Shown here piece after piece: positions 10,454 through 56,085 of a stretch of DNA of 64,000 nt (positions are counted from its first letter, which is position 1; each line of letters starts with the position of its first letter). The notes beneath the pieces are model-generated. The model saw nothing but the letters and a program-made list of their open reading frames with translations, did no database searches and was not told where the DNA came from. The translations under genes and the position numbers were made by a program. The stretch comes from Candidatus Moraniibacteriota bacterium (GTDB lineage Bacteria; Patescibacteriota; Minisyncoccia; Moranbacterales; UBA1568): positions 177,706 to 241,705 of the forward strand of contig CAVURJ010000002.1 in assembly GCA_963743885.1 (NCBI GenBank). The letters run 5' to 3'.

Positions 10454-13009
10454 ATGAAAGAATCCAAGAAACACAAGGAACCATCTGCGATGATCTCTGT
10501 TCGTGGCGCCCGGACGCACAATCTCAAGAATATTTCCGTCGACATGCCGCGCAATGCCATGGTGGTCTTCACTGGGCTTTCTGGCTCGGGCAAGTCGTCG
10601 CTCGCGTTTGATACCATCTTCGCCGAGGGACAGCGCCGCTATGTCGAGTCGCTCTCCGCATATGCGCGCCAGTTCTTGAATACGATGCAGAAGCCGGATG
10701 TCGATGAGATCCTCGGCCTGTCGCCGGCCATCTCGATCGACCAGAAATCAGCAAGCCGGAATCCTCGTTCGACCGTCGCCACCATCACGGAGATCTATGA
10801 TTATCTCCGCGTGCTGTTTGCACGTCTCGGACGGCCGCACTGTCTCGAATGCGGACGCGAGATCCAGAAGCTGTCCGTCGAGGAGATGATCGAGATCGTC
10901 TCTGATAAGGTGAAGGCGACCAAGAAGAAGGAAGGCGCTCTCATCATCGCGGCACCGGTCGTGCGTGGCCGCAAGGGCGAGTATTATCAGCTGCTCTACA
11001 ATGCGCTCGGCAAGGGCTTCAGCGAGATCTTCCTCGATGGGGAGCGCAAGAGTTTGCGCGAGCGCGTCATCCTTTCTAAGAATAAGAAGCACGATATCGA
11101 TCTCATCGTCGACGAGATACCGCTTCAGGAGTTCGGGAAGTTTCCCGAGACGTCCGCTGAGCGGCTCTCGGAAGCGGTGGAGCGTTCGCTTGAGGAGAGC
11201 GAGGGTTTGGTGAATATCCGCATCGCTGGGGAGACGCTTGTACTTTCGTCCAAGTTCTCTTGCCCGTATGACGGCTTCTCCTATCCAGAGGTAGAGCCGC
11301 GGCTCTTCTCCTTCAATTCACCGTACGGTGCTTGCGAGGCGTGCAATGGTCTCGGCACCAAGCATTTCTTCGGCGATGAGCCATGTGACGTCTGCCATGG
11401 GTCGCGTCTGCGTCCGGAGGCACTCCACGTGAAGATTGGTGGGAAGAATATCGTCGAGCTGACAGCTATGACCACTGTCGAGGCCAAGGCGTTCTTTGAT
11501 GGTCTTGAGCTCTCTGAGCGCGAGCGGCAGATCGCATCCGTAGTGCTGCGCGAGGTGGGCGGCCGTCTGCAGTTCCTGCTCGATGTCGGCCTCGACTATC
11601 TCTCTCTCGGCCGCCGCGCCAATACACTCTCGGGCGGCGAAGCGCAGCGCATCCGTCTGGCATCCCAGCTTGGGTCCAAGTTGGTCGGTGCGCTCTATGT
11701 GCTCGACGAGCCGACGATCGGCCTCCACAGCCGTGACAATGACCGGCTCATCGCGACACTTCAGGCACTCCGCGATCTCGGCAATACTATCATCGTCGTC
11801 GAGCATGACGAGGATACGATCTTTGCGTCCGACTACATCGTCGATATCGGCCCTGGCGCCGGCGTGCACGGCGGCGAGGTCGTGGCCTCCGGCTATCTCG
11901 ATGATCTCCTGACAGCCAAGAAAAATACATCCGGATCACTCACGCTCGCGTACCTGCGCGGCGAAGAGCGGATCGCTATCCCGGAGAAGCGCCGTGGCAA
12001 GGAGAAAGGCGCGCTCAAGGTCCGCGGTGGCAATCTCTACAATATCAAGGGCATGGATCTCGATATCCCGCTCGGCCGCTTCGTCGCGATCACGGGCGTA
12101 TCCGGTTCGGGCAAGTCGACGCTCATGTATGAAATCGTCCACAAGAATCTCCAGGTTCGCCTCGATCGTCGCTATCGTGACAACAAGACGTTCAATTGCC
12201 AAGCATTCTCTGGATCGGAATATCTTTCCCGTGCCGTGCTCATCGATCAGAGCCCGATCGGTCGTACGCCGCGGTCCAACCCGGCGACGTATACCGGCGC
12301 GTGGACACATGTCCGCGATATGTTCGCTGCGACCGAGGAGGCCCGTGTGCGCGGCTGGAAGGCCGGCCGCTTCTCGTTCAACCGTCCCGGCGGACGCTGC
12401 GAGACGTGCGAGGGCAACGGTTTCATCGCGGTGGAGATGCACTTCTTGCCGACAGTCTATGTGGAGTGCGATGTCTGCAATGGCAAGCGCTTCACCAAAG
12501 AGACACTCGAAGTGAAGTACAAGCACAAGAGTGTCTATGACGTGCTTGAGATGACGATTGAGGAAGCGTACGCGTTCTTCTTCGATATTCCAGCGATCGC
12601 TGACCGGCTCAAGACCTTGAATGAAGTGGGCCTCGGCTACCTCAAGCTCGGCCAGAGCGCGACCACACTTTCGGGTGGCGAGGCGCAGCGCGTGAAGATC
12701 TCAAGCGAACTCTATCGCCAGCATGTCGAGCGCACTATCTACCTCCTCGACGAACCGACCATCGGGCTCCACTACGAGGATGTGAAGAAGCTTATAGAGA
12801 TCCTCGATCGCCTCGTGCAGAAGGGGAATACCGTCCTTGTCATCGAGCACAATATGGATCTCATCAAGTCTGCTGACTACGTGATCGATATCGGTCCCGA
12901 AGGCGGCGTCGGCGGCGGTCAGGTCGTCGCCTACGGCACGCCGGAAGAAGTCTCGCTCAAGAAGGCTTCGCATACGGGGATGTATCTCCGCAGAGTGCTC
13001 AAGCGCTAG
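10454..13009 (+). CDS. uvrA: excinuclease ABC subunit A paralog lacking the insertion domain (UvrA, 851 aa)
   Basis: Two ABC modules ([10 protein letters not shown] / [18 protein letters not shown] x2) and zinc-finger Cys pairs are present. Compared with the second uvrA in the window, about 100 aa are missing between [16 protein letters not shown] and CDVCHGSRL (the insertion domain). The UvrB-binding-domain-like segment is retained. Confidence 0.93.
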
Positions 13010-13013
13010 CGCG

Positions 13014-13048
13014 AGGTATCATGTATCTTGTATCAAGTAGTATGTATG
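13014..13048. promoter_or_regulatory. phased heptamer array (5 x nGTATnn), directly after the uvrA stop
   Basis: ggtatca tgtatct tgtatca agtagta tgtatgg: GTAT recurs every 7 bp. Confidence 0.6.
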
Positions 13049-13076
13049 GGGCTCACGAAACCCCTTTTTGCTTTTT
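13047..13076 (+). terminator. rho-independent terminator after uvrA
   Basis: ggggctcacgaaacccc, then tttttgcttttt. Confidence 0.65.
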
Positions 13077-13132
13077 GAATCAATTTTAAAAAAGTCTTAC
13101 GATTTACGCAATCGCGAAAATTGTCAGACTTT

Positions 13133-13167
13133 TTCATACGAGATACAAAATACTAAATACCAAATAC
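13133..13167. promoter_or_regulatory. phased heptamer array (5 x nnnATAC), inverted partner of 13014
   Basis: ttcatac gagatac aaaatac taaatac caaatac. Confidence 0.6.
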
Positions 13168-13298
13168 GGTTCGGAAGGGGCTTTACAGTGTAGAGGAATC
13201 ATGCCACAATGGGCCGTTGCGAGTCAGTCAACATACAGGCTCAAAACCGCCATCTTCCCGGGCGTCGCGCGGGAATGTACTTTGAGAAGGAGTGAATC

Positions 13299-14030
13299 AT
13301 GGCGACTGACAAGGTCGACATCGCGGAGACGAATGCTATTTCGGCTTCGCAAATGAGTGAGTTCTTCCGGCTGGCAGCCAAACACGGCAGCCATGTCAAT
13401 CGGGAAACATTTCAGATGTTTCTCGAGTGGAAGCCGCTGTTTCTTGAACCGGGTACGAACGAGTTTCTCCGTTTGGCGCGCACCATCGATGAAATACGCA
13501 TCAAGATGGGCGTGAGCGATAAACAGTTCCGTACTCTCTGGACTCCCGAAGGTCGTCCGTATCTCGAGCGTATGATCGCCGGCCTAGTTGATACGATCAT
13601 TCGTGTCGACCGTTCCATTAGACCGGTTTACCCTAATTGGGCGAAGACGATAATGCATCCGGAGCTAGAAGCGACTGGCCCGGCCGAATATGACCTTTTC
13701 GAAGTGGAGCCTTGGCTTCATGAAGGCCAGAAGAACGGTCAACACATAGCGGGCTATCAGATTTATAAGTATTTGAAGGAACAGAAGATGCTCAAGAGCT
13801 GTCTGTCCCTCCGTGACGGCGAAGAAATCCGAAAAAAAGGCCCAACCGTTTTTCAGAAGGTCTTCGGAGATAGAGAGATCCTTCTGTGGAAGTCAGTTGT
13901 ACAGCATCGCGACAACCGCATCGCTGTCCCATACATTCGCAAGGATCGCGGTGAGATGGGAGGAGACTGGCTCGGTCTCAGTGAAATCGCGTTTGGTAAA
14001 GGATCTGTGACCCCGCGTTTCACAAGGTAA
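13299..14030 (+). CDS. hypothetical protein
   Basis: 243-aa ORF with SD aaggag upstream, coding-like codon usage and no recognised domain. Flanked upstream by phased heptamer arrays. Confidence 0.5.
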   Translation: MATDKVDIAETNAISASQMSEFFRLAAKHGSHVNRETFQMFLEWKPLFLEPGTNEFLRLARTIDEIRIKMGVSDKQFRTLWTPEGRPYLERMIAGLVDTIIRVDRSIRPVYPNWAKTIMHPELEATGPAEYDLFEVEPWLHEGQKNGQHIAGYQIYKYLKEQKMLKSCLSLRDGEEIRKKGPTVFQKVFGDREILLWKSVVQHRDNRIAVPYIRKDRGEMGGDWLGLSEIAFGKGSVTPRFTR

Positions 14031-14061
14031 CACCCCAATCTCGTACTTTAGACCTCACTGG

Positions 14062-14100
14062 CCCCTGGAAACAGTAACATCGTTTCCCGGGGTCTTTTTT
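14062..14100 (+). terminator. rho-independent terminator after 13299..14030
   Basis: cccctggaaac ... gtttcccgggg 10-bp stem, then tcttttttat. Confidence 0.6.
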
Positions 14101-14132
14101 ATACATAATACGTAATACTGAATACAAGATAC
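14098..14132. promoter_or_regulatory. phased heptamer array (5 x nnAATAC)
   Basis: tttatac ataatac gtaatac tgaatac aagatac, between two terminator hairpins. Confidence 0.6.
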
Positions 14133-14135
14133 AAA

Positions 14136-14156
14136 GCGGCCTCTAGGCCGCTTTTG
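14136..14156 (+). terminator. second short terminator hairpin (gcggcctctaggccgc plus tttt)
   Basis: Perfect 6-bp GC stem with a 4-nt loop and a T-run. Confidence 0.5.
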
Positions 14157-14158
14157 GT

Positions 14159-14207
14159 GGTATACTATATACATAGTTCTTCATACGTTATACATAATAC
14201 ATAATAC
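14159..14207. promoter_or_regulatory. phased heptamer array (7 units ATAC, one degenerate) overlapping the -10 tggtatact of gene 14222
   Basis: ATAC ends at 14165, 14172, (14179 degenerate), 14186, 14193, 14200, 14207: exact 7-bp phasing. Confidence 0.6.
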
Positions 14208-14221
14208 GTAATATAACTCTT

Positions 14222-15370
14222 ATGGCTACTATTGCAGAGTACGTCTCGGAGCGCGCCAAGGCAGGCGTTCCCAAGGCAGAGATCAAGGAGGAATTGCTCT
14301 CGGTCGGCTGGACCGAAGAAGAAGCAGATGCGGCCTATCGTGATGGTGTGATCGCGCTTGGTGTCCCGGTTCCGAGCGAAGGCGACCGCCCAGCGATCGG
14401 TAAGAAGGCATCAGTCGCGGACGTTGTGCTCAATTTCTTTTCGTTCATCCTGCTCGGCATCGTCGCGACGGCGCTCGGCACGCTCTACTTCGGCATCATC
14501 AATGAAACCTTCCCGGATGCGCTTGAAGCCTATTACAGCAGCGCGGCGACCAAGAGCTCGATCCACTATGCGATCGCGGCGCTTCTCATCGGTTTCCCAC
14601 TCTACTACGCGGCGATGCGGATGTGGTTCCGCGCGTTCCGTGACAATGAGAGCCGTTCCGAGTCCAAACTCTCCAAGTGGCTGACATACCTCGTGCTCCT
14701 CGCGGCATCGGTCACAGTCGTCGGCGACCTGATCACGGTCGTCTTCACGCTCCTCGAGGGTGAGATCACGATGCGGTTTTTCTTGAAGGCCCTCACGATC
14801 CTCGTCATCGCCGGTGCTATCTTCGGCTTCTACTTCCTCGAGCGCCGGATGGTGCAGTATCGGAAGGATGTCCCGCGCTCCGTCTTTCAGCGCTTCGGCC
14901 TCTTGGTCGCCGCGCTCGTCATCCTTGGCATCGTGCTCGGCTTTTTCGCAGGCGGATCGCCGGAGACAGCCCGCAAGCGCACCCTCGATACCAAGCGCAC
15001 GAATGACCTCTCATCGCTCTCGTCTTGCATCCAGAGCTACGCGAGCGATCTCGGAGCGCTGCCAGCATCGCTCTCGGACCTCAAGCAGTCGAGTATGTAC
15101 GCCTACTGTGCACAGTACATGCGCGACCCCGAGACGCTCAATGAGTATGAGTACCGTATTGTGACCGCCTCGCGCGTCCAGGGCGCGGCCCGGGTTGGGG
15201 AGTTCGAGCTCTGCGCGGACTTCGCGCTCGCAGCATCGGATACCGATGGCACCGATGCGATGTACCGGAATGGAGGCGCGCTCTGGGATGAGCACGCTGC
15301 CGGCCGTGAATGCGATACGGCGACCGCTCAGCTCGGCACGCTCACCGTACCGTCACCACTCATCAAGTAG
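14222..15370 (+). CDS. multi-TM membrane protein (DUF5671-like)
   Basis: Soluble N-terminal domain, then about 4 TM helices, then a Cys-containing C-terminal domain. This architecture is common among CPR hypothetical membrane proteins. Confidence 0.5.
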   Translation: MATIAEYVSERAKAGVPKAEIKEELLSVGWTEEEADAAYRDGVIALGVPVPSEGDRPAIGKKASVADVVLNFFSFILLGIVATALGTLYFGIINETFPDALEAYYSSAATKSSIHYAIAALLIGFPLYYAAMRMWFRAFRDNESRSESKLSKWLTYLVLLAASVTVVGDLITVVFTLLEGEITMRFFLKALTILVIAGAIFGFYFLERRMVQYRKDVPRSVFQRFGLLVAALVILGIVLGFFAGGSPETARKRTLDTKRTNDLSSLSSCIQSYASDLGALPASLSDLKQSSMYAYCAQYMRDPETLNEYEYRIVTASRVQGAARVGEFELCADFALAASDTDGTDAMYRNGGALWDEHAAGRECDTATAQLGTLTVPSPLIK

Positions 15371-33771: not shown

Positions 33772-35268
33772 ATGAAACAGAAACCGAAGATCGCTATCAT
33801 CGGAGCGGGGCCGGGCGGACTGACCGCTGGGATGCTGCTTGCGCATCGCGGGTTCGACGTGACTATATTTGAGAAGCGTGATGGCTGCGGCGGGCGCAAT
33901 GCCTCGTTCACACTGCCGGGCGGCTTCGTCTTTGATCTCGGGCCGACCTTCCTCATGATGAAGTACGTGCTCGATGAGGTCTTCGCTGAGACAGGGCGGA
34001 AGAGCAGCGACTATCTCTCGTTCACCAGGCTTGCGCCGATGTACCGGCTGTCTTTCGTGGACAAGTATATTGACATGCATGACAACCAGGAGCGGATGCG
34101 CGCCGAATGGGAGCGCGTCTTCCCGGATGAGGTTGGCGGCTTGGAGCGGTTTGAGCGGCGTGAGAGCAAGCGCCTGGCGCGGCTCCTCCCGTGCCTCCTC
34201 AAGGACTACGGCAGCTTTACGCGGCTGTATGACAAGGCCTTCCTTCGGGCGATCCCACATTTCTCCGTCGGTCGGTCGCTCTTCGATGTACTCGGGGATT
34301 ATTTCAAGAGTTCCGATGCACGCATTTGCTTTACCTTTCAGTCCAAGTATCTCGGCATGTCGCCGTGGGAATGTCCCGGAGCCTTCGGTATGATCCCGTA
34401 CGTCGAGCATCGCCATGGCATCTATCACGTGGAGGGTGGCCTTTCGAAGATCTCGGAAGCGATGGCCAAGGTTGTGGAAGAGGAGGGTGGTAGGATCCGC
34501 TACGGCACGGCAGTGGAGCAGATCGTCTTCGACGGGCGGCGCGCGACCGGTGTCCGGCTCGCGGACGGTACGGAAGAATCCTTCGATCGCGTCATTATCA
34601 ATGCTGATTTCGGCCATGCGCTCACGCATCTTGTGCCGGAGGGTGCAGTGTCGAAGTATCCGCGCGAGAAAGTGGAGAGCAAGAAATACTCATGCTCGAC
34701 CTTCATGCTGTACCTGGGGCTGTCCAAGCGCTATGACCTCCGCCATCACACAATCGTCTTTGCTGAGGATTATCGGAAGAATGTCGATGAGATTTTTGGT
34801 GGGCAGCTTTCCTATCCTGATTTTTCGTTCTACGTACGTGATGCTTCGGTGACGGATGCGACGATCGCTCCGGAAGGCAAGACCGCGCTCTATGTGCTCG
34901 TACCCGCGCCCAACCGGCAGCTCGGCAAGGATATCGACTGGGCGGCCGAGACGCCGCGTATCCGCGCCCGGGTGCTCGAGCTCTTGGCATCACGTCTCGG
35001 CATGACGGATGTGGCGGAGCATATCGAAGCGGAGCGCATCGTGACGCCAGCGGATTGGGAGGAGAAGCACGATGTCATGTTTGGCGCGACGTTCAACCTG
35101 GCGCACAATCTCGGTCAGATGCTCTGGTTCCGGCCGCACAATCGTCTCGAGTCCGTGGAACATGTCTATCTCGTCGGTGGCGGGACGCACCCGGGGAGTG
35201 GCTTGCCGACTATCTATGAGTCTGGTCGCATCTCGGCTGATCTTATCCGTCGGGAATTCGGGAAATAA
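33772..35268 (+). CDS. phytoene desaturase (CrtI)-family FAD-dependent oxidoreductase, leaderless
   Basis: KIAIIGAGPGGLTAGMLLA dinucleotide fold and a CrtI-like C-terminus (GGGTHPGSGLP). TATAAT at 33760-33765 ends 7 nt before the ATG at 33772, which fits a leaderless mRNA. Confidence 0.82.
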   Translation: MKQKPKIAIIGAGPGGLTAGMLLAHRGFDVTIFEKRDGCGGRNASFTLPGGFVFDLGPTFLMMKYVLDEVFAETGRKSSDYLSFTRLAPMYRLSFVDKYIDMHDNQERMRAEWERVFPDEVGGLERFERRESKRLARLLPCLLKDYGSFTRLYDKAFLRAIPHFSVGRSLFDVLGDYFKSSDARICFTFQSKYLGMSPWECPGAFGMIPYVEHRHGIYHVEGGLSKISEAMAKVVEEEGGRIRYGTAVEQIVFDGRRATGVRLADGTEESFDRVIINADFGHALTHLVPEGAVSKYPREKVESKKYSCSTFMLYLGLSKRYDLRHHTIVFAEDYRKNVDEIFGGQLSYPDFSFYVRDASVTDATIAPEGKTALYVLVPAPNRQLGKDIDWAAETPRIRARVLELLASRLGMTDVAEHIEAERIVTPADWEEKHDVMFGATFNLAHNLGQMLWFRPHNRLESVEHVYLVGGGTHPGSGLPTIYESGRISADLIRREFGK

Positions 35269-45369: not shown

Positions 45370-46839
45370 ATGCCGAAGCTCTGGGAAAAATCAGTAACGC
45401 TCGAAGCGTTTAAGAAAAAAAACAGGCTACCGGAAGTGCCGGGAGTGTATTTTTTCTTGGGAAAGAAGAAGGAGGTCCTCTATATCGGCAAGGCGACGAT
45501 TCTTCGTGACCGGGTGAAGAGCTATTTCTCGCAGGACATCATGGAGACGCGCGGGCCGAAGATTGCTCTTATGCTCGGGAAGATCCGGTCCATCGCGTAT
45601 CGGAAGACTGATTCGGTGCTTGAGGCGCTCATCCTCGAGACCAATCTCATCAAGGAGCATCAGCCGTCGTACAATACCGACCAGAAGGATGATAAGAGCT
45701 ACAATCATGTCGTCATCACGGATGAACTGTTCCCGCGCGTCTTGGTCATAAGAGGAAGAGATTTAGAAAAATATCCTCCTGTCATTCCCGCGAAGGCGGG
45801 AATCCAGAAAAAGAAATCCTGGATCCCGGGTCAAGCCCGGGATGACATAAGAATAAAATATTCATTCGGGCCGTTCCCATCGGGTGGCGGATTGCGTGAA
45901 GCGATGAAGATCGTGCGGAGGCTTTTCCCATATCGGGATACGTGCGTGCCAACGGACAGTCAACAGTCAACAGCTAACAGTCAACAGCGAACAGAGAACA
46001 ATCAGCAGTCAACAGCGAACAGAGAACAATCAGCAGTCAACAGTCAGCAGCTAATAGTTAGCAATGAACAAAAAGCAGTCATCAGTCAACGAAGAAAAAA
46101 GGCCGTCCCTCAAGCGTGTTTTAATAGGCAGATTGGTCTGTGTCCGGGAGTATGTACTGGTGAGATATCCGCTAAGGAATATGCACGGATAATCAATCAT
46201 ATCCGGCTGTTCTTCGAAGGACGGAAAAGTATGCTGGTGAAGCGGCTCGAGCGCGAGATGAAGGCGGCTGCCAAGGCGCTCGAGTTTGAGCGGGCTGGCG
46301 AGATCAAGAAGACGCTTTTCGGTCTGCAGCATATCCAGGATATGGCGCTTGTGAAGAATGACGAACGACTCACGACTCACGACTCACGACAGGGAGTGCG
46401 GATTGAAGCGTATGATGTGGCGCATCTCATGGGAGAGGCGTCGGTCGGTGTGATGACGGTCGTTTCCGGAAGTTATGCGGATACCGATGAGTATCGGCAG
46501 TTCAGGTTGCGAGGGGATCATAAGGGCAATGATCTCGCAGCGCTCGAGGAAATATTGTTCCGCCGCCTGAAGCATCCTGAGTGGGGACGGCCTGATGTCA
46601 TTGCGGTTGATGGATCATTCCTCCAGCTCGGCGTCGCTGAGCGCCTTTTTGACGGACTTCCTGAGAAGCCGCTTCTGGTTGGCGTTGTGAAGGACGCGCG
46701 ACACAAGGCGAAGGAGATCATCGGGTTGCCGGCGGGCTTCGCTCGGCTTGAGACTGATATATTGCTCGCGAATAACGAGGCACACCGCTTCGCTATCGCT
46801 TTTCATCGCAAGCGTCGCGGGAAGGAATTCTTGAAGTAA
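45370..46839 (+). CDS. uvrC: excinuclease ABC subunit C (UvrC), short form with two in-frame repeat insertions
   Basis: GIY-YIG domain (GVYFFLGKKKEVLYIGKA), Cys motif FPYRDTC ... CFNRQIGLCPGVC, UVR domain (EMKAAAKALEFERAGEIKK) and the RNase H-like endonuclease domain (RIEAYDVAHLMGEA). The C-terminal HhH2 domain is absent or short. Confidence 0.92.
   Translation: MPKLWEKSVTLEAFKKKNRLPEVPGVYFFLGKKKEVLYIGKATILRDRVKSYFSQDIMETRGPKIALMLGKIRSIAYRKTDSVLEALILETNLIKEHQPSYNTDQKDDKSYNHVVITDELFPRVLVIRGRDLEKYPPVIPAKAGIQKKKSWIPGQARDDIRIKYSFGPFPSGGGLREAMKIVRRLFPYRDTCVPTDSQQSTANSQQRTENNQQSTANREQSAVNSQQLIVSNEQKAVISQRRKKAVPQACFNRQIGLCPGVCTGEISAKEYARIINHIRLFFEGRKSMLVKRLEREMKAAAKALEFERAGEIKKTLFGLQHIQDMALVKNDERLTTHDSRQGVRIEAYDVAHLMGEASVGVMTVVSGSYADTDEYRQFRLRGDHKGNDLAALEEILFRRLKHPEWGRPDVIAVDGSFLQLGVAERLFDGLPEKPLLVGVVKDARHKAKEIIGLPAGFARLETDILLANNEAHRFAIAFHRKRRGKEFLK
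45781..45846 (+). repeat. 66-bp palindromic element inserted in-frame in uvrC (translates as VIPAKAGIQKKKSWIPGQARDD)
   Basis: gtcattcccgcgaaggcgggaatccag ... ctggatcccgggtcaagcccgggatgac: two inverted similar halves, each itself a hairpin. It replaces the roughly 8-aa loop that E. coli UvrC has between the GIY-YIG domain and FGPFP. Confidence 0.65.
45957..46095 (+). repeat. tandem repeat block inside uvrC (28-bp unit x2 perfect, plus degenerate cagtcaacag sub-repeats)
   Basis: cagtcaacagcgaacagagaacaatcag occurs twice in tandem at about 45978-46033. The block is read as QQSTANSQQRTENNQQSTANREQSAVNSQQ and expands the loop inside the UvrC Cys motif from about 11 to about 57 aa. Confidence 0.8.
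46366..46388 (+). repeat. heptamer tandem repeat (cgactca)x3 inside uvrC
   Basis: cgactcacgactcacgactcacgac encodes TTHDSR. Confidence 0.8.
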
Positions 46840-47037: not shown

Positions 47038-47305
47038 TTTGTATTTTGTAGAGACTTCATTCTGAAGCCTTTCCCGAGGCCAGAATCTTCCGGAGAAACT
47101 CTGGAGTCCGAGCGGGCACGGTTCCGAAGGAGAGCAAGGACGGAAGGTAATGGGACCGCCACGCCGGGGCGGGACCATGATTCTCCGGAAGGTTGCTGGT
47201 CCGAGTGGGAAGGCGAGTCGCGGCAGGAGTCTTTACAGCATCTTAAAAAGAGAGTACACTGGAAAGCAATTCTGCGTTTTTCCATCCTTCCAAGAACAAC
47301 GCCCT

Positions 47306-50104
47306 ATGTCAGGCAAGAAATCGGTGATTGAGGTACGCGGCGCGCGGGTCAACAATCTGAAGAATATAGACGTCGACATACCGCGCGATGCGCTGGTTGT
47401 CATCACTGGGCTTTCCGGTTCCGGCAAGTCATCCCTGGCTTTTGATACTCTCTTTGCGGAAGCGAATCGGCGATATGTCGAGTCGCTTTCTTCGTATGCG
47501 CGCAATTTCCTCGATGGTTTTGAGAAGCCGGACGTCGATGCGATTCGCAATCTCTCGCCGGCCATCTCGATTGATCAGAAGAGCGTGTCGCGTTCTCCGC
47601 GTTCGACGGTCGGTACCATGACCGAAGTCTATGACTATCTGCGCGTGCTCTTTGCCAAGTTGGGCGTGCCGCATTGCCCGAAGTGCGGCAATCTGCTCGC
47701 GCGCAAGAGTGTCCGCGAGATCCTCGAGGAGATCCTCCTCTTTCCTGACAAGACACCGCTCGTCTTCCTCGCTGAGAGTCCGCTTTTCGTCGGTAAGACG
47801 GAAAAGGAAGCGCTCCAGCTCGTGAACGGCTGGGGATACGTCAAGGCATGTGTACGCGGCGAGATCATGCCGATCGCCGAGGCTATGGCAGCTGCATCAT
47901 CCGAGTCGGCTGACGGTGTCATGGCAGTGATCGACCGGCTCGTGCTCGATCGTGAGCGCCCAGACAAGGAGCGCATCCTCGATTCGCTCCAGACAGCGTT
48001 TCAGGTGGGCCAGGGGACGCTCCTCTTGCGCGTGAATGGCGATGAGGAGATACGGAGCTACAACGAGGAATACCGCTGCGAGGCGTGCGGCATCCATTTG
48101 CCTGAGTTCACTCCGAGTCATTTTTCATTCAACAATCCAGAAGGCGCGTGCGCGAAGTGCGCGGGCTTGGGCGTGACGCTCGAGTTTGATCCGGAGCTCG
48201 TCATCCCGAACAAGAATCTATCGCTATCTGAAGGAGCGATCCGTCCGTGGAGCAAGATGAATGGCGACCGTCCTGGGGGCAACGGGCATATGGCTCAGCT
48301 GCGCGACCTCGCGAAGCGTATGAAGTTCTCGCTCGATGATCCGATCAAGAAGCTTTCGACGAAGCAGTATGCCGCCGTGCTCCATGGCGAGACAAATGGA
48401 AAGGAAGATGCCTTCCCGGGTGTCATCGCGCTCCTCGAGCGCAAGTATCGCGAGACGCGCTCCGATCATCTGCGTGCCGAGATTGAAGAGTATATGCTGA
48501 CCAAGGTCTGTCCGGAATGCAGGGGGAGGCGCCTCTCGAAGGCGTCGCTCGCCGTGCGTCTTGGTGGGTATTCCATCGATGATCTCGTGCAGCTTTCTGC
48601 TGAGAATTTCCTCTCAGTGTTGCCGGCGTTCCGCACAGCGCTTTTGCCACAGGGGGAGAAGCGCCTCATCGAGCCGCTCTTCCGTGAGATGGATGTGCGT
48701 ATGAAGGCAGTGGAGAAGGTGGGTCTCGGTTACCTTGAGCTCTGTCGGAGTGCCGATACACTCTCGGGTGGCGAGGCACAGCGCATCCGACTGTCGGTCC
48801 AGATGAAGTCTGGTCTTTCTGGCATCATCTATGTTCTTGATGAACCGTCGGTCGGGCTCCACAGCCGCGATACGGAGCGGCTCATCAATGCACTTGAAGA
48901 CTTGCGCGGTGCGAACAACTCGCTCGTCGTCGTCGAGCACGATGTCGCGATCATGCGCCGGGCCGACTATATCATCGACATGGGGCCAGGCGCTGGTAGC
49001 GAGGGTGGCGAGGTCATCTTTGCCGGTACGCCGGACAAGCTCCTCCGCTCGAAGCTTCTGACTGGCCAGTATCTTTCCGGCAAGCGCCAGGTTTCTGATA
49101 AGAAGAAGACGCGCAAGGGGAGCGGTGATTTCATCTCCGTCATCGGGGCGTCCGAGCACAATCTGAAGGATGTCGACGTGAAGCTGCCGCTCGGCATGAT
49201 GGTTGCGGTGTCGGGTGTGTCTGGTTCCGGCAAGTCATCGCTCGTGCACGATATTCTCGCCCGGGCGCTCTCCAAGCATTTCTATCATGCCAAGACTGAG
49301 CCGGGAGCCCACAAGAAGATCGAGGGTCTGGGCAATATTGATAAAGTGATCTCCGTCAATCAGGATCCGATCGGCCGCACGCCTCGCTCCAATGCGGCGA
49401 CGTATACGGGCGTCTTCAGCCTGATTCGTGATCTGTATGCAGCGACCTCAGAAGCGGAGCGCGAGAAGTATTCCGCGAGCCATTTCTCCTTCAATATGCG
49501 CGGCGGACGTTGCGAGGCGTGTCAGGGCGGCGGGCTCAAGAAGATCGAGATGTATCTCCTGCCGGATGTCTATGTGCCGTGCGAGGTCTGCCAGGGGACG
49601 CGCTACAACGCGAAGACGCTCTCTATCGAGTATCGCGGTATGAATATCGCTCAGGTGCTCCGTATGACCGTGTCCGAGGCGCGGCGGTTCTTCCTCGACC
49701 AACCGATGATCGAGGAGAAGCTCCGAGTGCTCGAGGAAGTCGGTCTCGGATACCTCGTTCTCGGCCAGAGTGCGACCAATCTTTCCGGCGGTGAGGCGCA
49801 GCGTATCAAGCTTGCGACCGAGCTTGCCCGCAAGTCGACCGGCAAGACACTCTATATATTGGATGAGCCGACGATCGGTCTGCACTTCGAGGATGTACGC
49901 CGGCTCTTGGAGGTGCTTGAGGCACTCGTCGACAAGGGCAATACTGTGCTCGTGGTTGAACACAACATTGACGTCATCAGCGCTGCGGACTGGGTGATCG
50001 AGCTCGGTCCTGATGGTGGTGAGAAGGGTGGCGAGCTAGTCTTCTCTGGACCGCCGGAAAGACTGAAGGCTTGCAAGAAGAGCTTTACCTCAAAATACTT
50101 GTAA
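47306..50104 (+). CDS. uvrA: excinuclease ABC subunit A (UvrA, full-length 932 aa)
   Basis: Start at [20 protein letters not shown] (ORF 47150 trimmed). Both ABC modules, the UvrB-binding domain and the insertion domain (about 110 aa between GLG and [10 protein letters not shown]) are present. Confidence 0.95.
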
Positions 50105-50217
50105 GAATTTTTAATTTTATAATTTTAAATTTTTAAAGAATCTCTGAATTTTCAATATTTAAACATTCAGTAATTCTGGAATTATTTTAAAATTAGAAAT
50201 TTAAAATTTAAAATTTC
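50105..50217. promoter_or_regulatory. AT-rich 7-bp periodic tracts (aatttt / aaattta units) between uvrA and 50223
   Basis: aaattta aaattta aaatttc perfect at about 50197-50217; aatttt starts at 50106, 50113, 50121, 50128. Confidence 0.45.
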
Positions 50218-52449: not shown

Positions 52450-52484
52450 GTATAGCGTATATCGTATCAAGTATCTCGTATGGA
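52450..52484. promoter_or_regulatory. phased heptamer array (5 x GTATnnn) directly after the pilC stop
   Basis: gtatagc gtatatc gtatcaa gtatctc gtatgga. Confidence 0.65.
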
Positions 52485-52505: not shown

Positions 52506-53900
52506 ATGTCTTTTCTTATACAAAATACAAAATACAAAATACAGGATACGGGACTGAAGGGTTTCACGCTCATCGAGACGCTCGTGTTTCTCTTTGTCTT
52601 TTCATTGGTTTCAATCGTCTTTTATCAGGCGTATGCAACTGGAATACGGACGATTATCGAGACGAAGAACCGTCTCGGCGCGACAGCGCTTGCCAATCAG
52701 AAGATGGAGATAATCCGGAGTATCGCGTATGACGATATCGGTACGACAAGCGGCATTCCGAGCGGGACGCTCGCTCAAGATGAGACAATCAGTGTCAATA
52801 CGACCCGGTATCAGGTCCATACTTATGTCGGCCATGTCGATGACTTGTTTGATGGAGCGCTCGCTACCGGTACTGATAGCGTGCCGAATGATTACAAGCG
52901 CGTACGTCTAGAGGTCTCATGGGGTTCGGGCGGAACTGATCAGCAAGTCGTGATTTTCGGCAGATTCTCTCCGAATGGTATCGAGACGCCGGCTGGTGGC
53001 GGTATACTTTCTATCAACGTGCTTGATGCTTCAGGATCAGGAGTATCTGGTGCATCGGTACGTATCAGAAATCCATCTGAGTCGGTGGATTTGACTGCGA
53101 TTTCTGACCTGACCGGAAACGTCACTTCGGTCGGTGCCCCGGCTGGATCGCAGAATTATGAGCTGACTGTCTCCAAATCAGGCTATTATGGCGCGCAGAC
53201 CTATGCACCGACAGCATCGTTTACGCCAGTGGACATCCACGCCTCGGTTGTTGATGCTGCACTCAACCAGGCGACAATCGTGATGGATCGGTACGCTGAT
53301 ATCAGTCTTCATTCCGTGGATTCTTTTGGTACCGATGTTCCAGGGGTTGATATGGATATCGAAGGCGGTCGTCATTTTGGTACGAATGTCACGGGTGCAC
53401 CTCCCGTAGTATCAGAGACGTATAGCTTTTCGGACAGTATCACGACGGGTAGTTCCGGCGAGGAGGATATTCAGGATCAGAGCTACGGCACGTATACGGT
53501 GAGCAGTGTGTCTAAATCAGGTTATACCTTTTATAAGCTCTCTCCAGACGGGCCGGCCTATAATCAGCTTTCTGCCTTGGCTGGCGTGAACAATACTGTC
53601 TCGCTCGTTATGCTCGATAATGCCGTGAGTTCGCTCTGGGTAAAGGTGAATGATAAGAGCGTTCCGCCAGATCCTGTTTCGGGAGCATCCGTGCATCTTT
53701 CGGAGAGCATTTCAGGATATGATGCGACCGTCACGACGGATGCGTTCGGCTATGCATTTTTCCCGACGGCGCTGCCGGCGCTTGTCGCGGGAACGTATGA
53801 TCTTGAAGTAAGTGCGACTGGATTTGATACGGATACCGGAACGGTTTCGATCGGTGGAGCAGCGCTTGTCACGGAAACCGTATCGCTTCAAGCCGAATAG
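52506..53900 (+). CDS. large type IV pilin-like protein (prepilin N-terminal methylation motif)
   Basis: G/FTLIETLVFLFVFSLVS is a class III signal/N-methylation site. 464 aa, Thr/Ser/Gly/Val-rich beta-like body. The annotated 5-prime end is built from ATAC heptamer repeats, so the start is uncertain. Confidence 0.62.
   Translation: MSFLIQNTKYKIQDTGLKGFTLIETLVFLFVFSLVSIVFYQAYATGIRTIIETKNRLGATALANQKMEIIRSIAYDDIGTTSGIPSGTLAQDETISVNTTRYQVHTYVGHVDDLFDGALATGTDSVPNDYKRVRLEVSWGSGGTDQQVVIFGRFSPNGIETPAGGGILSINVLDASGSGVSGASVRIRNPSESVDLTAISDLTGNVTSVGAPAGSQNYELTVSKSGYYGAQTYAPTASFTPVDIHASVVDAALNQATIVMDRYADISLHSVDSFGTDVPGVDMDIEGGRHFGTNVTGAPPVVSETYSFSDSITTGSSGEEDIQDQSYGTYTVSSVSKSGYTFYKLSPDGPAYNQLSALAGVNNTVSLVMLDNAVSSLWVKVNDKSVPPDPVSGASVHLSESISGYDATVTTDAFGYAFFPTALPALVAGTYDLEVSATGFDTDTGTVSIGGAALVTETVSLQAE
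52514..52548. promoter_or_regulatory. phased heptamer array (5 x nnnATAC), inverted partner, inside the annotated 5-prime end of the pilin gene
   Basis: cttatac aaaatac aaaatac aaaatac aggatac. In frame 52506 it translates as IQNTKYKIQDT. Confidence 0.65.
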
Positions 53901-55974: not shown

Positions 55975-55979
55975 AGCAG

Positions 55980-56007
55980 GGTATAGGGGTTAGGAGATAG
56001 GCTATAG
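55980..56007. promoter_or_regulatory. phased heptamer array (4 x ggTATAG-like) after the stop of 54529..55974
   Basis: ggtatag gggttag gagatag gctatag. Confidence 0.55.
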
Positions 56008-56043
56008 AAAAACAAGAAAGTTTTTAGTTTGAAAGTCTGCCAT

Positions 56044-56085
56044 CTATACCCTATACCCCATAACCTATCACCTTCGCGCTATAGG
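56044..56085. promoter_or_regulatory. phased heptamer array (CTATAcc-like, 6 units with one degenerate), inverted partner, upstream of the pilM promoter
   Basis: ctatacc ctatacc ccataac ctatcac (cttcgcg) ctatagg, then tggtatgat (-10) at 56104. Confidence 0.55.

Follow-up and report, generated by a model that had tools for sequence, protein, structure and literature searches.

Direct repeats with a period of seven nucleotides (nt) have been described close to the starts of genes in several bacterial groups. Repeats of the heptamer TAACTGA are found in marine Beggiatoaceae, Cyanobacteria and Bacteroidetes; their reader is unknown, and S1, Csp and CsrA have been proposed for it (MacGregor, 2015; PMC4679880). 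Likewise, heptamers of Nostoc PCC 7120 such as (TTCAAAA)3 or GAC(C/T)AAT x8 are positioned within 30-100 nt of a start or a -10 box, their deletion altered regulated promoter activity in reporters, and a binding protein has been postulated (bioRxiv 10.1101/2022.06.06.494920). The present analysis concerns two arrays of the tetranucleotide ATAC, array A and array B, which precede a DUF5671 membrane protein gene in a Candidatus Moraniibacteriota bacterium, a member of the candidate phyla radiation (CPR). The sequence base is one 64-kb window of the genome (64,000 nt of contig CAVURJ010000002.1), called the window hereafter. Judged from the sequence, both arrays very probably belong, on the same strand, to a repeat family that is dispersed in and typical of this Moranbacteria-like CPR lineage. 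Its element, termed the pentad, consists of about five ATAC cores at an exact spacing of 7 nt with free 3-nt spacers. It is read here preferably as a module of the initiation region of genes, and this statement as a whole, family and mechanism together, is given a probability of roughly 0.4; its mechanistic part, taken by itself, is doubtful.

The pentads and the TAACTGA repeats are alike in being tandem 7-nt units, mostly intergenic and forward, a few nt upstream of starts that lack a ribosome-binding site. The TAACTGA repeats come in 2-6 copies per set, accompany genes of all functional classes and include, as the pentads do, some copies within open reading frames (ORFs). They differ in that the whole heptamer is near-perfect and one indirect repeat has been reported, whereas in the pentads four of the seven positions are fixed, the number of units peaks at five, GTAT-oriented copies stand past stop codons and inverted pairs occur. 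The Nostoc heptamers similarly lie near the starts or -10 boxes of many genes without a known reader, but their units are near-perfect and of other sequences, and neither a length rule like that of the pentads nor a stop-codon partner has been described for them. The pentad is set apart from the known start-codon heptamers by its 4+3 structure, its fixed length, its post-stop partner arrays and its dialects. TTTTGAT heptads of the Vibrio cholerae ctxAB promoter are described as varying in copy number between strains and altering promoter activity via regulators (bioRxiv 10.1101/2021.05.14.444153); they are, as here, direct heptads upstream of a promoter, but are perfect repeats at a single locus with known regulators. 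The literature searched contained no paper linking heptanucleotide repeats with Patescibacteria.

The locus runs from the end of a 243-aa gene at 14030 through terminator T1, array A, a palindrome, the promoter element TGGTATACT and array B to the ATG at 14222. Its features are as follows.

14060-14094 and 14095-14100, + strand: hairpin and T6 run of T1, the terminator of the 243-aa gene, abutting array A
14101-14132, + strand: array A, ATACATA ATACGTA ATACTGA ATACAAG ATAC, five units
14133-14154, no strand: palindrome AAAGCGGCCT ct AGGCCGCTTT, hairpin T2, 10/10 complementary
14158-14166, + strand: extended -10 TGGTATACT; the ATAC inside it (14162-14165) is the first in-phase unit of array B
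14162-14214, + strand: array B, ATAC at 14162, 14169, 14183, 14190, 14197 and 14204
14209-14214, + strand: TAATAT, a -10-like hexamer from the degenerate last unit, 7 nt before the ATG
14222-15370, + strand: DUF5671 membrane protein gene (PF18920), no Shine-Dalgarno (SD) sequence

Both arrays are tandem direct repeats of exact 7-nt period, with five units in array A and 6(+1) in array B. A position script placed the ATAC starts of array A at 14101, 14108, 14115, 14122 and 14129, all exact; the first-pass annotation, which had given 14104 to 14132, marked the C of each ATAC and was right about the phase. The seven units it counted in the second array need qualification, as six positions are exact ATAC, the in-phase position 14176 reads GTTC, and an additional in-phase ATAT stands at 14211. 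The pentad proper of array B covers 14183-14214 and follows the pyrimidine run AGTTCTTC; pyrimidine run and pentad together form a 42-nt family, D1, with copies at 13125, 14090 and 14172. Array B ends 7 nt before the ATG if the ATAT unit is counted and 14 nt before it from the last ATAC, with no SD sequence. Array A lies 89 nt upstream of the ATG, away from the start-adjacent position of the known heptamers, at about -72 to -41 relative to the inferred transcription start, and the registers of the two arrays are 33 nt out of step.

The arrays had also been described as flanking a terminator. The T2 hairpin does exist, but the stronger T1 lies directly upstream of array A, so that two terminators enclose A, in place of one terminator enclosed by A and B. 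The predicted fold of 14055-14160 amounts to -36.9 kcal/mol (z -4.7). T2 is a weak, bidirectional terminator-like site with just TTTT after the hairpin, and its palindrome is not conserved in the relatives L173 or L169. A hairpin between A and B is ruled out because the two are copies in the same orientation; the predicted fold of 14095-14221 holds just the T2 hairpin and a small ACUAU/AUAGU stem. No Rfam family gave a gathering-score match in the whole window, and none matched at E<=1 in 12900-14400.

The -10, the terminator and the identity of the gene are the supported parts of the earlier description. The sequence TGGTATACT occurs five times in the window (8102, 14158, 27990, 32083 and 51180), always on the + strand and upstream of a gene, and TGNTATAMT occurs 9 times against 1.4 expected; because of this recurrence and over-representation the call of a -10 within tggtatact is sound. 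It is a sigma-70-type extended -10, found again as TGNTATAMT in orthologues. The chain of array B does begin inside it, at 14162, and the gene downstream is a DUF5671 gene by its PF18920 match, both as previously stated. If transcription starts about 7 nt after the hexamer of TGGTATACT, the leader would measure about 48 nt and array B would make up most of it. By its position, TAATAT at 14209-14214 may possibly act as a second, leaderless promoter.

Upstream regions of DUF5671 orthologues were compared at two distances. The distant set comprised 38 distinct regions of <=67% identity, and TGNTATAMT was found in 16/38, mostly 7-33 nt before the ATG; the -10 was just 7-9 nt from the ATG in 5 of 38, and an SD-like motif was present in 3/38 and missing from 35/38. 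Three in-phase ATAC or GTAT units were found in 0/38. Absence of the arrays from orthologous regions with a conserved promoter had been named at the outset as the result that would speak against a repressor-type site, and it is largely what the distant orthologues show. Among close relatives, L173 (81% identity) has a four-unit upstream array (one unit CTAC) 25 nt before TATACT and a five-unit leader chain in phase with the -10, as in array B. L169 (87%) has a four-unit ATAC array that ends 22 nt before TATACT, and its leader carries CTAACNN x4. L171 (83%) has TATACT, 26 nt and the ATG, without an array. The phasing is kept in L173, replaced by CTAAC heptads in L169 and absent from L171. This different, G-free heptad in the L169 leader suggests that position rather than the exact core matters there. 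The number of units varies as well between related genomes, with 8 against 5 for array B and 5 against 4 for the upstream array, and the distance from an A-type arm to the -10 in relatives is 22-28 nt. The arrays are thus labile in evolution while the promoter is conserved. On these comparisons, array A is the conserved downstream arm, which in relatives lies between the terminator of the preceding gene and the promoter, and array B is the -10 hexamer TATACT with in-phase ATAC units filling the leader to 7 nt before the ATG.

SD-like motifs are in the minority in the window, where one precedes 19/66 crudely called ORFs. At 33772, TGTATAAT-aaaaat-ATG has its -10 very near the ATG. Since the -10 of some genes is so close to the start codon, leaderless mRNAs are likely common in this organism.

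The window contains six ATAC pentads. The pattern ATACN3ATACN3ATAC occurs 15 times and was absent from all 100 dinucleotide shuffles used as the null model, which excludes chance. When chains of at least four units of any 4-mer are counted, period 7 stands out with 8 regions, compared with 0-1 for the periods 5, 6 and 8-11. The four pentads outside arrays A and B, with adjoining features, are given below.

13016-13047, - strand: pentad in GTAT orientation, one unit GTAG, 6 nt past the uvrA stop
13048-13070: uvrA terminator hairpin, directly after the GTAT pentad
13136-13167, + strand: pentad in ATAC orientation, 14 nt upstream of the -35 of the 243-aa gene promoter
13182-13210: promoter of the 243-aa gene, TTTACA-17-CACAAT
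52450-52481, - strand: pentad in GTAT orientation, 5 nt past the pilC (T2SSF) stop
52518-52549, + strand: pentad in ATAC orientation, within the prepilin leader (MSFLIQNTKYKIQDTGLKG, then FTLIE) of a pilin-like gene

Conservation at these sites separates core from spacer. The uvrA pentad is kept in L173 and L169 with 1/20 core changes each against 3/12 and 8/12 spacer changes, and L517, L518 and L520 keep the pilC 3' pentad without any core change (0/20). Taken together, the orthologous pentads of four related genomes, at the 3' ends of pilC and uvrA and in the pilin leader, differ at 2/160 core positions and at 23/96 spacer positions (Fisher p = 4e-9), all comparisons sharing one reference. 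Cores are kept by selection while spacers drift, and some factor probably reads ATAC in a 7-nt register.

The same comparison bears on slippage. The arrays might be by-products of heptanucleotide slippage, either neutral or acting as contingency loci that tune leader length through the number of units. Heptanucleotide repeats are common in bacteria according to the Mrazek 2007 survey as summarised in PMC4679880, and in our scan they were frequent in bacteria and viruses, also with the control cores ACTA and CAAT; the differing numbers of units between relatives and the duplication in array B, which Tandem Repeats Finder (TRF) reports with a period of 21 nt x 2.2, would fit as well. Set against this are the retention of cores beside diverging spacers, the length peak at five units with no 3-unit arrays in the window, and the strict polarity described below. 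The units are moreover imperfect, which makes slippage inefficient: TRF matches range over 78-94%, and no perfect stretch in A or B exceeds two units. Slippage is a very improbable account.

Polarity and length were followed in a cross-genome pattern scan with one genome per species, which returned at least 120 loci with five ATAC units, 26 of them classed as CPR. These loci were chosen for having five ATAC units and their ORFs were called crudely; the counts in this and the next paragraph are those among the matches listed. Exactly five units were found in 35/40 CPR arrays; the spacers were highly diverse in 26/40 and the repeat was perfect in 1/40. Non-CPR arrays were perfect in 47/97, and non-CPR and viral matches were mostly perfect, microsatellite-like tracts of 5-18 units. 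The viral scan gave no sign that ATAC is special among 4-mers worldwide: its counts and those of the control cores ACTA and CAAT are all lower bounds, the controls too were common, and period-7 repeats are ubiquitous; the CPR-specific traits are the pentad length and the free spacers. ATAC alone is fixed, spacers differ in almost every unit, and those of different copies are unrelated. The orientation follows transcription. Within 20 nt upstream of an ATG, 27 arrays were ATAC-oriented vs 6 GTAT-oriented, a forward, start-near placement that array B shares, and within 20 nt past a stop codon 27 were GTAT-oriented vs 10 ATAC-oriented. Adjacent arrays on opposite strands were arranged (-+) in 22 cases and (+-) in none; arrays A and B, both on the + strand, are the sole (++) pair among 16 adjacent CPR pairs and do not form the inverted pair of elements resembling REP or REPIN (repetitive extragenic palindromes and their paired form). 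Between the last ATAC and the ATG, spacings of 6-8 nt are the most frequent, and wherever the spacing is 7 nt (6/6) a T follows ATAC. The resulting xATACT-N6-ATG is, in sequence terms, the geometry of a -10 hexamer with transcript start at the A of ATG.

Copies also occur inside genes. Nine arrays within Pfam-verified genes are all in sense orientation, and so is the array in the prepilin leader of the window; the genes with internal sense arrays include TsaD (three cases), DegT, MiaA, MurB, DUF2298 and the N-terminus of a methyltransferase. In-frame sense ATAC pentads were noticed in L065 (306-1391, a Wildermuthbacteria TsaD), L100, L116 and L068, in TsaD, MiaA, MurB and DegT. Alignment of TsaD orthologues placed the three array sites in variable loops, which are short in some lineages, and in many CPR lineages these loops contain peptides that look heptad-encoded in several dialects. 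In the pilin-like gene (window 52506-52562) the ATAC pentad encodes the prepilin leader, and 25/110 orthologue leaders are the exact translation of a perfect heptamer x3, compared with 0/110 for control segments. Their cores are ATAC, AATC, ATTC, CTAC and others, for example NQESRIK = AATCAAG, ATSYKLQ = GCTACAA and QNSKFKI = CAAAATT. In another Patescibacteria metagenome-assembled genome (L083, 2730-4866), six pentads lie in about 2.1 kb and form three (-+) pairs; one pair separates two divergent genes, whose start codons are 2 and 7 nt away from its arrays. Pentads are also carried by contigs of Saccharibacteria such as L005 and L017. As to tRNA genes, tRNA-Ser follows 6 nt behind an ATAC pentad (L076, 4205-4332) and AGTTnnn x4 stands 1 nt from the end of tRNA-Ile (L124, 1384-1489). 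Arrays abutting tRNA genes indicate that the element is not tied to translation starts only.

Tandem sites of this spacing are familiar from ribbon-helix-helix (RHH) proteins. The omega heptads (WATCACW) of pSM19035, the ParG tetramer boxes (ACTC + 4-bp spacer) and the metboxes of MetJ are spaced by 7-8 bp, direct or inverted, are bound cooperatively and overlap promoters. ParG sites resemble the pentads in having a 4-bp core and a free spacer, and array B, whose chain starts in the -10, forms contiguous units overlapping a promoter as RHH arrays do. The pentads might accordingly be double-strand sites to which a global repressor or a nucleoid protein binds cooperatively, with a subunit or dimer on every ATAC; at this locus it would occlude the -10 and the leader. 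The conserved 4-bp core, the fixed 7-bp spacing and unit number, the conservation of both orientations and the phasing of the chain with the -10 in two genomes are in keeping with such a binder. RHH arrays, however, are confined to a few promoters or centromeres beside the gene of the binder, and the pentads are genome-wide and polar; copies stand in 3' untranslated regions (3' UTRs) 5-6 nt past the uvrA and pilC stops, in the prepilin leader and inside housekeeping ORFs of CPR. A strict polarity to transcription is not predicted by a simple double-strand operator. There is no regulon-like gene set, the few neighbouring proteins scanned contain no DNA-binding family, and the arrays are missing from distant orthologous promoter regions, of which 16/38 have a recognisable -10. 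The binder is thus quite unlikely, and the repressor-type site proposed in the first-pass annotation is not supported as an operator private to gene 14222. Since the cores are under selection, a protein might nevertheless bind them cooperatively.

Neither of the neighbouring proteins, of 243 and 306 aa, has a family in Pfam, NCBIfam or PHROGs, and the 243-aa one has no significant PDB match, so that nothing in these databases marks its gene as a binder or mobility gene. This ORFan (13299-14030) has direct copies of the T-run and pentad module on both sides; it is present in L173 (59% identity), absent in L169, and replaced at that spot by a GrpB gene in L171. From these presences and absences, the gap between uvrA and DUF5671 looks like an array-bounded insertion/deletion hot spot. 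The stretch 13168-13190 (GGGGCTTTACA) was considered as a pilin-gene remnant, which is ruled out as it is the conserved -35 region of the 243-aa gene promoter. The module of terminator hairpin, T-run and array holds in this lineage as family D1; as a CPR-wide module it was rejected, since fold energies and T counts upstream and downstream were alike (p = 0.79, 0.46).

Dispersal through intergenic regions, loops and leaders raises the question whether the pentad is a genomic signature that propagates itself and does nothing for the gene beside it. It could be an uptake-signal-like sequence, favoured when a competent CPR bacterium takes up and recombines DNA with a bias, or an element of the REP, REPIN or Rickettsia palindromic kind that settles where it is tolerated. 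DNA uptake sequences and uptake signal sequences (DUS/USS) are known to occur as inverted pairs serving as terminators and as copies in variable protein parts, with a reported bias to genome-maintenance genes. Extragenic palindromic pairs past stops are likewise known from repetitive extragenic palindromic (REP) sequences, bacterial interspersed mosaic elements (BIME) and REPINs, and from Rickettsia palindromic elements (RPEs), which also occur in frame in ORFs of reduced genomes. The pentads recall both kinds: copies occupy variable loops of conserved proteins and a cleaved leader peptide, inverted pairs right past stops form hairpins, the core has lineage dialects with single-base differences, arrays adjoin uvrA and uvrA2 with heptads inside uvrC, and direct copies bracket a gene that is present or absent among relatives. 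But DUS/USS are single 9-12-mers at about 1 per kb, in contrast to a periodic 32-nt array at just about 1 per 10 kb, and REP-type families share full-length identity and, for REP, a REP-associated tyrosine transposase (RAYT), in contrast to pentad copies that share just cores and register. Spacers without shared identity mean that the copies were not made by copy-and-paste; no RAYT or transposase was seen in the 64-kb window, and nothing in the model would lead one to expect the orientation bias. Two published observations count for the uptake-signal version, namely that DUS have dialects by lineage, as the pentads do (PMC3630211), and that Saccharibacteria are reported to be naturally competent (PMC10187176). 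On this balance a self-propagating signature is unlikely.

Other period-7 arrays of the window deserve description in their own right. AATTTTT / AAAATTT inverted arrays at 50106-50136 / 50186-50216 lie 2 nt past the uvrA2 stop and 6 nt before an ATG. In the relatives examined (L517, L518 and L520) the arms change together, to AATTTCT/AGAAATT in L518 and AATATCA/TGATATT in L520, and this co-change is compensatory evidence for a hairpin. A further inverted pair, xTAGGnn / CTATACC at 55975-56012 / 56040-56075, stands right after a PilX-like gene; with its ATAG/CTAT cores it folds at -36.7 kcal/mol (z -3.75), and three relatives have purine-rich sequence in its place at the orthologous junctions. 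Both pairs share the layout stop codon, array, array, ATG. Two UvrA paralogues (851 aa, 10454-13009; 984 aa, 47150-50104) and UvrC are encoded in this one window, and each has period-7 arrays at its 3' end or inside. The UvrC ORF (45370-46839) contains an in-frame AACAGnn array of about 13 units (45956-46050) with a perfect 28-nt higher-order repeat; in the protein this array becomes an insertion rich in Q, S and N that separates the GIY-YIG domain from the UVR motif. The ORF also contains a second in-frame array, ACGACTC x3.7 (46365-46390), just after the UVR motif.

Inverted arrangement gives many pentads a folding potential. The pentads at 13016-13047 and 13136-13167 pair with each other (fold of 13010-13173, -48.8 kcal/mol, z -6.2), and inverted pairs at other family loci form long predicted hairpins with z -2.6 to -9.5. 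The pilC and pilin arms do not pair, yet both are conserved, and hairpin formation is therefore not the sole constraint. The two strands differ in structure: sense AUAC arrays have a mean minimum free energy of -0.95 kcal/mol and 6% G, compared with -4.76 kcal/mol for the GUAU strand. The uvrA 3'-UTR array is also predicted to form duplexes with array A (-26.7 kcal/mol, z -4.5), array B (-24.9, z -3.3) and the pilin array (-24.5, z -5.5). These figures could be taken for an RNA-RNA pairing code, in which a GUAU 3'-UTR pentad with its terminator behaves like a small RNA, pairs in cis or trans with AUAC pentads of leaders and early coding regions and masks the start. Arms that co-vary at orthologous junctions (as at uvrA2) agree with this, and a shared code would call for just such a fixed register and free spacers. 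However, 4-bp helices broken by 3x3 loops are weak where spacers mismatch, as in the unpaired pilC-pilin arms, complementarity follows automatically from shared cores, and there is no evidence of processing. We know of no Hfq-like partner here. A pairing code of this kind is very improbable.

From the polarity, the core conservation and the anatomy of the locus we infer a binding factor and an effect on expression, and the initiation module is favoured because the core coincides with -11 to -8 of TATACT, the array is in phase with the -10 and the leader is free of structure. According to this favoured reading, the pentad would act strand-specifically on the start of the downstream gene. At the DNA level, ATAC would represent the -11..-8 core of the -10 hexamer TATACT of the lineage, and the last unit would take up the leaderless-promoter geometry xATACT-N6-ATG in several genomes. 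At the RNA level, the G-poor, near structure-free AUAC leader would suit the initiation on SD-less short-leader or leaderless mRNAs that this gene appears to use in its relatives. Sigma/RNA polymerase, on the non-template strand, might be the factor reading ATAC in 7-nt register; the alternative candidate is a protein of the cold-shock-domain or S1-like type that binds single strands over a site of about 7 nt. GTAT copies past stops would then be complementary arms, which together with an ATAC arm could form long hairpins around or instead of terminators.

Several observations weigh against the initiation module. The GTAT pentads past stops are equally core-conserved, though they face no gene start, and initiation modules would hardly be expected inside enzymes such as TsaD (3 copies), MiaA and MurB. 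Unit position 5 is T in 2/16 window units, and this rarity makes most units poor -10 hexamers. Array A stands upstream of the promoter, outside the leader; most window genes that have no SD-like motif have no array either; and the same genome carries inverted period-7 arrays with other cores (AATTT; ATAG/CTAT). Two further mechanisms were considered and dropped. A Rho utilisation site is rejected as a general explanation because the core has no YC dinucleotides and because heptamer repeats abound in cyanobacteria, which to our knowledge lack Rho. A polar transcription roadblock, in either orientation, clashes with the conserved terminator past the GTAT array or with sense arrays in ORFs.

A more speculative and very unlikely proposal is that the pentads are sites of an undescribed CPR-wide system of lineage-tunable specificity. 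Such a system might be a signal by which self DNA is taken up or recognised in type IV pilus competence, or a regulator that binds single-stranded nucleic acid with a 7-nt footprint and marks transcription units at either end. Relatives have, seen or inferred, the cores ATAC, ATTC, AATC, CTAC and GAAT. If the proposal holds, the signal would be strong enough to enter the loops of essential enzymes and prepilin leaders.

For about a decade, heptamers next to start codons have been on record from Beggiatoaceae, cyanobacteria and Bacteroidetes with no mechanism to go with them. Their counterpart in CPR is particularly informative, with four of seven positions constrained, about five units, a strict orientation and a core that changes between lineages. 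A constrained core, a fixed length, an orientation rule and dialects are together the signatures of a trans-acting reader, and co-variation of the core dialect with candidate proteins offers a handle for finding it. For annotation, the pentads explain odd peptides of the 'IQNTKYKIQ' type in CPR proteins and leader peptides. As CPR bacteria have few recognisable regulators and few SD sites, a genome-wide element at the boundaries of genes would bear on how minimal cells start and stop expression.

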